Below, piece by piece: positions 1,131-32,193 of a stretch of DNA of 64,000 nt. The DNA is taken from NCBI RefSeq assembly GCF_045037415.1, contig NZ_CP173438.1. One strand, written 5' to 3'. The notes below the pieces were generated by a model. It worked only from the letters and a program-made list of their open reading frames with translations, ran no database searches and was not told the DNA's origin. Source of the stretch: Escherichia coli. GTDB taxonomy: Bacteria > Pseudomonadota > Gammaproteobacteria > Enterobacterales > Enterobacteriaceae. Every line of letters starts with the position of its first letter. Position 1 is the first letter of the stretch. The translations under genes were made by a program, and so were the position numbers.

Positions 1131-3392
1131 TTACCCCCGACGCAAATTCTGCGCCGCCTGCACCATGTTCGCCAGTGCCGCGCGGGTTTCTGGCCAGCCG
1201 CGCGTTTTCAGGCCACAGTCCGGGTTGACCCACAGACGCTCTGCCGGAATGCGTTTTGCCGCTTTCTTCAGCAAGGCTTCAATCCATTCCACGCTCGGTA
1301 CGTTTGGCGAGTGAATGTCATAGACGCCAGGACCGATTTCATTTGGATAATCAAACTCTTCAAACGACTCCAGCAACTCCATGTCGGAACGCGAGGTTTC
1401 GATGGTGATGACGTCTGCGTCCAACGCCGCAATCGAATCCATAATGTCGTTGAACTCGCAGTAACACATGTGAGTGTGGATTTGTGTGTCATCTTTCGCC
1501 ACGGCGGCGTTGATACGGAAAGCCTCCACGCCCCACTGGAGATAGGCATCCCAGTCGCTGCGACGCAGTGGTAAACCTTCGCGCAATGCCGGTTCGTCAA
1601 TCTGAATGATGCCAATTCCAGCGGCTTCCAGATCGGCCACTTCATCACGCAGTGCCAGCGCAATCTGTTTGGCGATGGTTTCACGGCTGACATCTTCACG
1701 CGGGAACGACCAGCAGAGAATAGTCACCGGGCCAGTCAACATCCCTTTCACCGGTTTATCAGTCAGGGATTGCGCATATTTTGCCCACTCCACGGTAATC
1801 GGTGCCGGGCGGCTAACGTCACCAATAACAATCGGTGGCTTCACGCAGCGGGAACCGTAGCTCTGTACCCAACCGTTTTGCGTAAAGACAAAGCCATCCA
1901 GATGCTCGCCAAAGTATTCCACCATGTCATTACGCTCGGCCTCGCCATGTACCAGCACATCCAGTCCCAAACGTTCCTGCTCAACAATGGCCTGCTTGAT
2001 ATGTTCCGCAATGCCCGTGCGGTAGTTATTGGCGTCGATATTACCCTTTTTAAAATCCAGACGCAGGGTACGAATCTCCGTGGTTTGCGGGAAGGAACCA
2101 ATCGTGGTGGTCGGCCACGCGGGCAGTTTAAAACGCGCACGCTGGGCTTCAGCACGCACTTCATAGACATTCGCACGCTGACTGTCCTGGGCGGTGATCG
2201 CCGCCAGACGCTTTTCTACTGCCGGATTATGTACACGAGTAGAGTGACGACGCGCCTGAATCGGAGCGCTCCACTCTGCCAGAGCTGCCGTATCACCACT
2301 GTTCAGCGCATCGCGCAGCAATGCCAGTTCATGACATTTTTGCAAGGCGAAGGCAAACCAGCTTTTCACTTCTGCATCAAGACGCGTTTCCACGCTCAGG
2401 TCGATGGGGCTGTGCAGCAGTGAGCAGGAAGATGCCACCCACAAATCACGTTTGCCGACAATGTCCTTAATTTGCGCATATTTCTCGGTAAGATCGGCGC
2501 GCCAGACGTTACGACCATTGATAAGACCCGCAGACAGCAGCCAGTCAGAAGGCAGGCGCTTGTGCAGTTCAGCAACGTCATCTTTACCATGTACAAGATC
2601 GACATGCAGACCCTGAACAGGCAGCGCAGTAATCGTGTCGAGGTTTGGCGTTACGCCTTCAAAATAGGTGGTCAGCAGCAGTTTCACCTGGCCCTGGAGC
2701 GCGTCGTAAGCGGGTTTGTATGCATCCAGCCACGCCTGCGGCAGTTCCAGCACTAGCGCGGGTTCGTCGATCTGTACCCACTCAATGCCGCGTTTCGCTA
2801 GTTCTGCCAGCACTTGCTGATAAACCGGCAGAATGTCGTTCAGCAGGCTCAGGCGATCAAACTGTTCACCTTTCACTTTACCCAGCCACAGGTAGGTAAC
2901 CGGCCCCAGCAGCACAGGTTTCACCTTGTGGCCCAGCGCCAGCGCCTCGTCCACTTCCTCCAGCAGCTGCGTCCAGGTCAGTTTGAACTGTTGGCCTTTA
3001 ACGAACTCCGGCACCATGTAGTGATAGTTGGTGTTAAACCATTTGGTCATTTCCGCTGCCGCCGCAGGTTCGCCAGTCGGTGCACGTCCACGACCAATAC
3101 GGAACAGGGTATCGATATCTACCGAACCATCGTTGTTCTGATGACGTTGCGGAACATTACCCAGCAGCAGACTGGTTGTCAGTACATGATCGTACCAGGC
3201 AAAATCGCCCACCGGCAGCAGGTCGATACCCGCTTGCTTTTGTTGATCCCAGTGACGAGCACGCAATTCACGCCCTACCGCCAGCAGTTCTTCACGCGTG
3301 GAGTTCCCCGCCCAATAACTCTCTTGCGCTTTTTTCAGCTCGCGACGCAGGCCAACGCGAGGGAAACCGAGGGTGTGATTAAGAATTGTCAT
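1131..3392 (-). CDS. metE: Cobalamin-independent methionine synthase
   Basis: 753-aa ORF; N-terminus [29 protein letters not shown] and overall length match E. coli MetE. Confidence 0.97.
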
Positions 3393-29148: not shown

Positions 29149-30354
29149 ATGACGGAACAAGAAAAAACCTCCGCCGTGGTTGAAGAGACCAGGGAGGCCG
29201 TGGACACCACGTCACAACCTGTCGCAACAGAAAAAAAGAGTAAGAACAATACCGCATTGATTCTCAGCGCGGTGGCTATCGCTATTGCTCTGGCGGCGGG
29301 CGTCGGTTTGTATGGCTGGGGTAAACAACAGGCCGTCAATCAGACTGCCACCAGCGATGCCCTGGCTAACCAACTTACGGCACTGCAAAAAGCCCAGGAG
29401 AGCCAAAAAGCCGAGCTGGAAGGCATTATCAAGCAACAAGCTGTACAGCTTGAGCAGGCGAATCGTCAGCAAGAAACGCTGGCAAAACAGCTGGATGAAG
29501 TCCAACAAAAGGTCGCCACCATTTCCGGCAGCGATGCTAAAACCTGGCTGCTGGCCCAGGCCGATTTTCTGGTGAAACTCGCCGGACGGAAGCTGTGGAG
29601 CGATCAGGACGTCACGACCGCTGCAGCGTTGCTGAAAAGTGCAGACGCCAGCCTGGCGGATATGAATGACCCGAGTCTGATTACCGTTCGCCGGGCAATT
29701 ACCGATGATATCGCCAGCCTTTCTGCGGTATCGCAGGTGGATTATGACGGTATCATCCTTAAGCTTAATCAGCTTTCAAATCAGGTAGATAATCTGCGTC
29801 TGGCCGATAATGACAGCGATGGTTCGCCGATGGATTCCGACGGTGAAGAGCTTTCCAGTTCCATCAGCGAATGGCGTATCAATCTGCAAAAAAGCTGGCA
29901 GAATTTTATGGACAACTTCATTACGATTCGCCGTCGTGATGACACTGCCGTACCGCTGTTAGCGCCAAATCAGGATATCTATCTGCGCGAAAATATCCGC
30001 TCTCGCCTGCTGGTCGCAGCACAAGCTGTACCGCGTCACCAGGAAGAGACTTATCGCCAGGCGCTGGAGAACGTCTCCACCTGGGTACGTGCTTACTACG
30101 ATACTGATGATGCCACCACCAAAGCGTTCCTCGACGAGGTGGACCAGTTAAGCCAGCAAAATATCTCGATGGATCTTCCGGAAACCCTGCAAAGCCAGGC
30201 GATGCTGGAAAAATTGATGCAGACCCGCGTGCGTAACCTGCTGGCACAACCGGCAGCAGGGACAACGGAAGCTAAACCTGCACCTGCACCTGCACCTGCA
30301 CCTGCACCTGCACCGCAAGCTGATGCTCCGGCAGCCGCGCCGCAAGGAGAATAA
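29149..30354 (+). CDS. hemX: HemX (membrane protein of the hem operon)
   Basis: 401-aa ORF with one TM segment, coiled-coil Q/A-rich region and a C-terminal (PA)n repeat. Confidence 0.9.
30283..30312 (+). repeat. Hexanucleotide tandem repeat (CCTGCA)n, about 5 copies, encoding [12 protein letters not shown] in hemX
   Basis: Read directly: gcacctgcacctgcacctgcacctgcacctgcaccg. Confidence 0.9.
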
Positions 30355-30356
30355 CC

Positions 30357-31553
30357 ATGCTAAAAGTGTTATTGCTCTTTGTGTTGCTGATTGCGGGGAT
30401 CGTGGTTGGCCCGATGATTGCCGGCCATCAGGGTTACGTGCTGATCCAGACCGACAACTACAATATTGAAACTAGCGTCACGGGCCTCGCGATTATTTTG
30501 ATTCTGGCGATGGTAGTGCTGTTTGCCATTGAGTGGCTACTGCGGCGAATCTTCCGCACAGGCGCGCACACCCGTGGGTGGTTTGTCGGACGTAAGCGTC
30601 GCCGTGCACGTAAGCAGACCGAACAGGCGCTGCTGAAACTGGCGGAAGGCGATTATCAGCAAGTTGAAAAGCTGATGGCGAAAAATGCCGATCACGCTGA
30701 ACAACCGGTGGTGAACTATCTACTGGCAGCCGAAGCCGCGCAACAACGTGGTGATGAAGCACGCGCCAACCAACATCTGGAACGCGCAGCGGAGCTGGCC
30801 GGCAATGACACCATTCCGGTAGAAATCACCCGTGTACGTCTGCAACTGGCCCGTAATGAAAACCATGCAGCACGTCACGGCGTTGATAAGCTGCTGGAAG
30901 TTACGCCACGCCATCCGGAAGTATTACGTCTGGCGGAACAGGCGTATATCCGCACAGGGGCATGGAGTTCGCTGCTGGATATCATCCCATCAATGGCGAA
31001 AGCCCATGTTGGTGATGAAGAACATCGTGCAATGCTGGAACAACAGGCATGGATTGGCCTGATGGATCAGGCGCGTGCCGATAACGGTAGCGAAGGTTTG
31101 CGTAACTGGTGGAAAAACCAAAGCCGGAAAACGCGTCATCAGGTGGCCTTGCAGGTGGCAATGGCGGAACATCTTATTGAGTGTGACGATCATGATACTG
31201 CCCAGCAAATTATCATCGACGGCCTGAAACGCCAGTATGACGATCGCCTGCTGCTGCCGATCCCGCGTCTGAAAACCAATAATCCGGAACAGCTGGAAAA
31301 AGTGCTGCGCCAACAGATCAAAAACGTGGGCGATCGCCCGCTGTTGTGGAGCACACTGGGTCAGTCGCTGATGAAACACGGAGAATGGCAGGAAGCATCG
31401 CTCGCCTTCCGCGCAGCGCTGAAACAACGTCCGGACGCCTACGATTACGCATGGCTTGCCGACGCGCTGGACAGACTGCACAAGCCGGAAGAAGCCGCAG
31501 CGATGCGTCGCGACGGTTTGATGCTAACGTTGCAAAACAACCCACCGCAGTAA
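30357..31553 (+). CDS. hemY: HemY (TPR-containing membrane protein of the hem operon)
   Basis: 398-aa ORF with two N-terminal TM helices; starts 3 bp after hemX. Confidence 0.9.
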   Translation: MLKVLLLFVLLIAGIVVGPMIAGHQGYVLIQTDNYNIETSVTGLAIILILAMVVLFAIEWLLRRIFRTGAHTRGWFVGRKRRRARKQTEQALLKLAEGDYQQVEKLMAKNADHAEQPVVNYLLAAEAAQQRGDEARANQHLERAAELAGNDTIPVEITRVRLQLARNENHAARHGVDKLLEVTPRHPEVLRLAEQAYIRTGAWSSLLDIIPSMAKAHVGDEEHRAMLEQQAWIGLMDQARADNGSEGLRNWWKNQSRKTRHQVALQVAMAEHLIECDDHDTAQQIIIDGLKRQYDDRLLLPIPRLKTNNPEQLEKVLRQQIKNVGDRPLLWSTLGQSLMKHGEWQEASLAFRAALKQRPDAYDYAWLADALDRLHKPEEAAAMRRDGLMLTLQNNPPQ

Positions 31554-31556
31554 TCT

Positions 31557-31588
31557 ATATCGCCTCGTTCAGGGGCGATATTTTTTTA
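31557..31588 (+). terminator. Rho-independent terminator of the hemCDXY operon
   Basis: ATATCGCC-TCGTTCAGG-GGCGATAT hairpin followed by TTTTTTT. Confidence 0.7.
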
Positions 31589-31593
31589 CAAGG

Positions 31594-32193
31594 ATGTCAA
31601 ACATGCGCACACCGTCCCGCTATATTTTCCGCTTACCATCACATGAAATTAATCCTTTTCGGGCAACGCTCTTGCTGATTTTGTTGATATGTGCCGTTCT
31701 GGCTGGCGTAAGTTGGCTGATTCTGTCCTTCGTACGTACAGGCAATACATTCATCTTCTGGTTAACACTTTTTATTGGGTATCTGATAGCCATTGCGAAG
31801 CAGGAAAAAATCAAGCTCATCGAGAAGCGCCAGATTATGGCTGATAAACGTCAGGGACTTTCCATTTGTCAGTTCGCACGCCAATTTTCCCCCCACACCG
31901 TAGATACATGGGTGATTCGGGCTGTGTGGAATACCTTACAAGGAAACGGCTATATCGATTATCCATTACCACTGAAAGCCAGTGATAAACTGGACGATGA
32001 TCTGGATTTAGTAAACGATGCAGACGAGTTAGAAGAGCTGGTCGAAGATATTGCCGCTCGTTGTGGGCGCGATCTACGCGGAATAGAAGATAATCCGTTT
32101 CTTCCCATCACCACGGTAGGTTCTCTTGTAAGTGTATTAAACGCACAACCGATGACCCAAGAGCGACGTAGCCTGTTGTTTACTCGGTCATAA
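31594..32193 (+). CDS. Hypothetical two-TM membrane protein with acidic C-terminal domain
   Basis: 199-aa ORF in a 640-bp region between hemY and the GlmZ 3' end; AAGGA 9 nt upstream of the second ATG (31603); two hydrophobic helices then DDDLDLVNDADELEELVED. No family recognised. Confidence 0.45.
   Translation: MSNMRTPSRYIFRLPSHEINPFRATLLLILLICAVLAGVSWLILSFVRTGNTFIFWLTLFIGYLIAIAKQEKIKLIEKRQIMADKRQGLSICQFARQFSPHTVDTWVIRAVWNTLQGNGYIDYPLPLKASDKLDDDLDLVNDADELEELVEDIAARCGRDLRGIEDNPFLPITTVGSLVSVLNAQPMTQERRSLLFTRS

Follow-up and report, generated by a model that had tools for sequence, protein, structure and literature searches.

The window analysed here is a stretch of 64,000 nucleotides of Escherichia coli DNA (contig NZ_CP173438.1). 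It contains an open reading frame of 401 residues that had been called hemX when the letters were first read without database searches (the sequence-only reading). The assignment proved sound. A Pfam scan of the encoded protein returned PF04375 (HemX) over residues 130-363 with E = 3.9e-108 and 360.9 bits against a cut-off of 25.9, and the match spanned positions 2-235 of the 236 positions of the profile. The gene was annotated as hemX in every matching RefSeq genome, and its flanks were hemD and hemY. In the matching RefSeq E. coli genomes the gene order was cyaA, hemC, hemD, hemX, hemY, aslA. The features of the region are the following.

29149..30354, plus strand: hemX coding sequence, 401 aa (open reading frame and Pfam PF04375)
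30148..30345, minus strand: 65-aa open reading frame with a TTG start and the repetitive product CRCRCR... (from the list of open reading frames)
30253..30272, plus strand: site of CVN014 primer R (GCAGCRGGGACAACGGAAGC), exact and the sole match in the window
30277..30312, plus strand: perfect hexanucleotide microsatellite (CCTGCA)6 (direct reading and TRF)
30344..30349, plus strand: AAGGAG, in the last hemX codons Q-G-E (from the sequence)
30352..30354, plus strand: hemX stop codon TAA (from the sequence)
30357..30359, plus strand: hemY ATG (from the sequence)
30376..30399, minus strand: site of CVN014 primer F (TCCCCGCAATCAGCAAMACAAAGA) in the start of hemY, exact and the sole match in the window

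At its N terminus HemX is basic, and a single hydrophobic helix spans approximately residues 35-57. By the positive-inside rule, the part of the protein past this helix, including the C-terminal tail, is probably periplasmic. The tail is short and comes after the Pfam domain; it is rich in Ala and Pro, presumably disordered, and harbors the repeat, with 13 residues beyond the Pro-Ala tract. Because the Pfam domain ends at residue 363 and the last 13 residues are too few to form a domain, the tract belongs to a C-terminal tail and does not link two domains. The sequence-only reading had expected changes in repeat number to alter a "linker length". This wording had to be given up, as there is no folded domain C-terminal of the tract.

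PF04375 was the only family above the cut-off in the Pfam scan of HemX, and a tetrapyrrole methylase domain was absent from it. Judged from this domain content, the RefSeq product name uroporphyrinogen-III C-methyltransferase is unsupported, and the name is to be regarded as historical; Pfam itself words that methyltransferase role as "putative". HemX was described as a poorly characterised membrane protein in a review from 2008 (PMC2704936), and a search of the PDB returned no HemX relative. The gene ends with CAA GGA GAA TAA, in which AAGGAG is located seven bases 5' of the hemY ATG and is a candidate Shine-Dalgarno site for hemY.

Farther downstream, approximately 635 bp (31554..32189) separate hemY from aslA. 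A 199-aa open reading frame with a predicted membrane segment is found there (31594..32193, plus strand); it had no Pfam match and carries the RefSeq label "hypothetical protein". When a query of 1,269 bp over the hemY-aslA interval was used, at least 80% of it was matched in just 693 of 5,425 complete E. coli genomes, and most of the remaining genomes matched its distal half only. In one genome the interval contained an IS1.

Analysis with TRF yielded a single array at 30276..30314 with a period of 6, 6.5 copies, 100% matches, and no indels. Its score of 78 was the top score in the 64-kb window, the runner-up reaching 57. The TRF span exceeds the perfect run at 30277..30312, since the A and the CC on either side of the run extend the pattern. 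In a uniform-base approximation, the chance expectation for such a run in 64 kb is approximately 1e-13. The (CCTGCA)6 array is in frame with hemX and codes for (Pro-Ala)6, corresponding to residues 377-388 of the protein. In the sequence-only reading it had been placed at 30283..30312 with about 5 units. The perfect CCTGCA run was thereby recognized correctly, but the first unit had been missed, and the array has 6 units starting at 30277. The 12-residue peptide that had been quoted was correct and is identical with residues 377-388 of the 401-aa product; the location of a (Pro-Ala)n tract near the C terminus of HemX was likewise correct.

Copy number was analyzed by megablast of two queries, 331 bp (30130..30460) and 1,201 bp (29700..30900), against complete E. 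coli genomes. The locus was found in 5,425 of the 5,426 genomes. A single genome was without a match for the hemX-hemY junction, a few genomes had two junction matches, and one match was located on a plasmid. Two evenly spaced sets were then sampled from the 5,425 genomes, which gave 119 rows and, with SK1144 present in both sets, 118 distinct genomes. Span differences were multiples of 6 in every sampled row (119/119) and corresponded to 1 to 16 units. The commonest alleles were those with 6 units (23 rows), 2 units (21 rows, among which laboratory derivatives of K-12 are overrepresented), and 5 units (15 rows), and Nei diversity across the 119 rows, a sample that is not phylogenetically balanced, was 0.89. 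The sequence-only reading had proposed that strains differ by whole 6-bp units and that this could be verified by counting units across E. coli genomes; the count gave different numbers, from 1 to 16 units, all separated in length by multiples of 6 bp.

Eleven alleles were read base by base (n = 1, 2, 5, 6, 7, 8, 13, 15 or 16). They consisted of uninterrupted CCTGCA units between common flanks, and their differences in length were located in the repeat. All seven full-length hemX alleles were intact open reading frames of 391 to 421 aa, and the prediction that a change in the repeat would not cause a frameshift thus stood. HemX of K-12 had been described as slightly shorter than the protein in the window. 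It has 393 aa and 2 units as compared with 401 aa, and the gap of 8 aa equals exactly 4 units. The value of n was 2 in all of the approximately twelve assemblies, from K-12 or K-12-like strains, whose spans were identical to that of K-12. Each of the right-flank haplotypes QADA, QADT, and QGDT was combined with several repeat lengths.

The partial BLAST match H60 gave the impression of an interrupted hemX; it was in fact an intact 15-unit allele at which the alignment had ended early. In the assembly of P276M (L008, NZ_CP044293.1), the locus at 2054..2200 read (CCTGCA)7, CCTGCTGCA, CCTGCA, CCA, (CCTGCA)4. This allele is impure, with CCTGCTGCA and CCTGCACCA units. For the neighboring hemY (2206..3316), the annotation gives a frameshift and an internal stop. 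With hemY frameshifted and garbled, P276M was set aside as a candidate for a natural interrupted variant, and its impure allele is probably an assembly error.

The open reading frame on the opposite strand (30148..30345) remained open in 7/7 alleles examined, and its length tracked the repeat. A Pfam scan of its product gave no match. Six polymorphic sites were present in the span that it covers; four of them were synonymous in the hemX frame versus two in the antisense frame, although six sites are weak evidence. The antisense frame is best read, on this thin evidence, as a by-product, due to the repeat and to Ala/Pro codons that are stop-poor on the opposite strand, rather than as a gene, in agreement with its earlier description as an artefact.

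The hemX repeat is the VNTR locus CVN014 and, as a locus, is already known and not new; the counting of units across E. coli that the sequence-only reading proposed has, in effect, been going on for years. Table 1 of PMC8143711 lists TCCCCGCAATCAGCAAMACAAAGA (F) and GCAGCRGGGACAACGGAAGC (R) as CVN014 primers and calculates the number of repeats as (product size - 111)/6. Both primers matched the window where 0 matches were expected by chance, and the two sites converge and bracket the repeat. The resulting amplicon, 30253..30399, has a length of 147 bp, and (147 - 111)/6 is 6. The formula reproduced the counted number of units in 11/11 alleles checked, from n = 1 to n = 16. Primer sites, 6-bp unit, 111-bp offset, and high allelic diversity are the same for CVN014 and for the repeat in the window, and no difference was found at the locus. 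CVN014 was reportedly among the loci of the generic E. coli MLVA scheme (GECM-7, GECM-10) of Lindstedt et al. 2007.

In its passages on CVN014, PMC3877011 calls the locus the "most variable locus" of a 10-locus generic E. coli MLVA assay, and the corresponding passages of PMC3407997 attribute the majority of single-locus variants within ST131, ST648, and ST38 to CVN014, with many of them in ST131. For Swedish ESBL isolates, 2 to 12 repeats are given in the CVN014 passages of PMC5217547; compared with this published range, the complete genomes widen that of CVN014 to 1-16 units. The name hemX does not occur near the CVN014 passages of PMC3407997, PMC3877011, PMC8143711, or PMC5217547, and a full-text literature search for hemX together with tandem repeat, MLVA, or VNTR returned no paper that ties the gene name to the repeat. 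An apparent literature match for hemX typing concerned an unrelated hemX SNP in Salmonella. The 5-6-unit haplotype of the window resembles O25b-ST131 values given in the CVN014 passages of the literature, which is only suggestive; there are no MLST genes within the 64-kb window.

The repeat changes recurrently and much faster than substitutions build up, because differing lengths sit on identical or near-identical backgrounds. B18271 (n = 16), w264 (n = 1), and 1218KP (n = 15) had 0 differences over the 1,128 bp of hemX located 5' of the repeat. Of two strains from cattle, 131 has 7 units and 108 has 5; apart from these 12 bp, they are separated by one SNP in 10.3 kb of sequence. Rows with 5, 6 or 7 units were found within the haplotype of the window itself (at least 99.1% identity over 1.2 kb). 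For hemX without the repeat, dN/dS was 0.02-0.07 in divergent pairs; outside the repeat, the gene is under purifying selection.

We consider the array to be the known in-frame hexanucleotide VNTR CVN014 in the 3' end of hemX, driven by slippage and near-neutral, with a probability of roughly 0.93. Within pure head-to-tail CCTGCA units, the nascent strand would pair with the template out of register by whole units during replication (slipped-strand mispairing). Gains and losses would come in steps of six bases, such that the frame is kept and the number of Pro-Ala dipeptides alone changes. The tract is situated beyond the conserved HemX domain in the low-complexity tail of an inner-membrane protein, and a change in its length would be tolerated because only 13 residues come after it; such changes are most likely near-neutral. 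Drift of the locus would then be fast and reversible, over a range from 1 to at least 16 units. That the array is prone to slipped-strand expansion and contraction had already been suggested in the sequence-only reading. The whole-unit changes, the purity of the array, and the identical backgrounds agree with this suggestion, and slippage as the molecular mechanism is what we infer from them.

Coding VNTRs used for bacterial typing (O157 MLVA, Salmonella STTR) are alike in that they have short perfect units, change by whole units, are highly homoplasic, and differ between near-identical isolates. Phase-variable contingency loci share with the hemX repeat the instability of a simple sequence inside a gene. 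They switch genes on and off. The hemX repeat is not phase-variable in this way, since a unit of 6 bp is divisible by 3 and leaves the frame unchanged, and the open reading frame is retained in all examined alleles.

It appears very unlikely that the whole-unit changes arise mainly by recombination, be it unequal exchange between sister chromosomes or horizontal import of alleles, and not by polymerase slippage. E. coli does recombine, different right-flank haplotypes (QADA, QADT, QGDT) exist, and the whole-unit pattern taken alone fits slippage and unequal sister-strand recombination equally. Arrays well under 100-200 bp are, however, poor substrates for RecA. Nor is imported DNA needed where 1, 15, and 16 units occur on an identical hemX and where 5 and 7 units are found on 10.3 kb with one SNP. 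Furthermore, PMC3777172 reports, for serial passage of O157, insertions and deletions of whole units in short-unit VNTRs, at rates that were higher in longer alleles.

HemX homologues from other genera were compared with that of the window. The tails of Citrobacter and Salmonella HemX are also rich in Ala and Pro and have the APQGE end. In the C. gillenii / C. freundii group (P0037, P0078, P0110) PA is present two to four times, and in Citrobacter sedlakii (P0006-P0009, P0013) an AAP unit is present once, twice, or three times. Among the homologues compared, long pure (PA)n arrays were confined to E. coli-like sequences. Repeat variation that preserves the frame seems to recur in the HemX tail across genera. 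One record from an ENA metagenome, P0001 (485 aa), is 99% identical to HemX of the window. It was considered as a giant repeat allele and rejected, its extra length being due to an internal duplication of approximately 84 aa over the end of the HemX domain; its PA tract is broken by one Thr (PAPAPAPTPAPAPAP). The duplication, seen in this single record, may be genuine and in tandem or may result from misassembly.

These tails bear on the idea that the length of the tract is itself functional and selected, which we regard as highly improbable. A semi-rigid Pro-Ala spacer would set the reach of the conserved C terminus in the periplasm or its contacts with partners, and the locus would be contingency-like and kept pure for evolvability. 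The conservation of Ala/Pro-rich tails with the APQGE end in Escherichia, Citrobacter, and Salmonella would be in line with a function, as would the small PA or AAP repeats that Citrobacter species have of their own and the substitutions in the 13 codons past the tract, of which 3/3 change the amino acid. Salmonella HemX, however, is without any PA repeat, and natural isolates of E. coli span 1 to 16 units, a range of 30 residues in which no preferred length was seen. The conservation of the last 13 residues, and of APQGE across genera while the repeat varies, may be explained by overlap with the putative hemY ribosome-binding site. Ala/Pro-rich spacers are known from the hinge of OmpA, from TonB, and from the lipoyl-domain linkers of AceF. 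The HemX tract shares the Pro-Ala composition of these segments and, like them, is expected to be extended and flexible or semi-rigid, but they join two folded parts, whereas the tract in HemX is followed by 13 residues. In the literature covered, no phenotype was tied to allele length.

A published selection scan has to be considered in the same context. Table S1 of PMC9110714 (Sci Rep 2022), a PAML analysis of 92 wastewater E. coli genomes, places hemX first among the positively selected genes by a wide margin (omega 21.9, P = 7.3e-128). Misaligned CVN014 units are the probable source of this signal, which would then be an artefact of alignment; the suspicion is raised because the gene body is strongly constrained (dN/dS of the remaining gene, <=0.07) and because the repeat forces gaps into alignments.

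It has also been found by two-hybrid analysis in three species that HemX binds YhcB/ZapG (PMC8163987). The length of the Pro-Ala tail might thus conceivably tune an interaction of HemX in the periplasm, for example in a YhcB/ZapG-LapA-HemX assembly, and CVN014 would then act as a "tuning knob" of the envelope. We give this proposal hardly any credence, as the 1-16 units of natural isolates and the missing repeat in Salmonella speak against it; if it were true, the published signal of positive selection on hemX would be partly real.

Differences in copy number as mere artefacts of sequencing or assembly, through collapse or expansion of the repeat, are effectively refuted by PCR fragment lengths: the P276M assembly, with an impure allele beside a frameshifted hemY, is typical of uncorrected long-read error, but the tract of at most approximately 100 bp is covered by single reads whatever the platform, none of the 119 sampled differences departs from a multiple of 6, the alleles checked are clean, the K-12 and K-12-like assemblies agree with each other, and capillary electrophoresis of PCR products, which is independent of assembly, gave the same allele range in the CVN014 passages of PMC5217547 and PMC3407997.

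As a discovery the repeat carries little weight, strains of E. coli having been typed with this locus since 2007. The CVN014 allele of the window is 6, and MLVA alleles can be derived directly from genome sequences by locating the two primers and subtracting the offset of 111 bp. In selection scans, the CVN014 repeat is likely to give rise to false positives. The differences in length between HemX proteins, 391 to 421 aa in the seven full-length alleles, stem wholly from the repeat and not from truncation or misannotation, and the locus is useful as a strain-typing marker because the number of its units would drift quickly.
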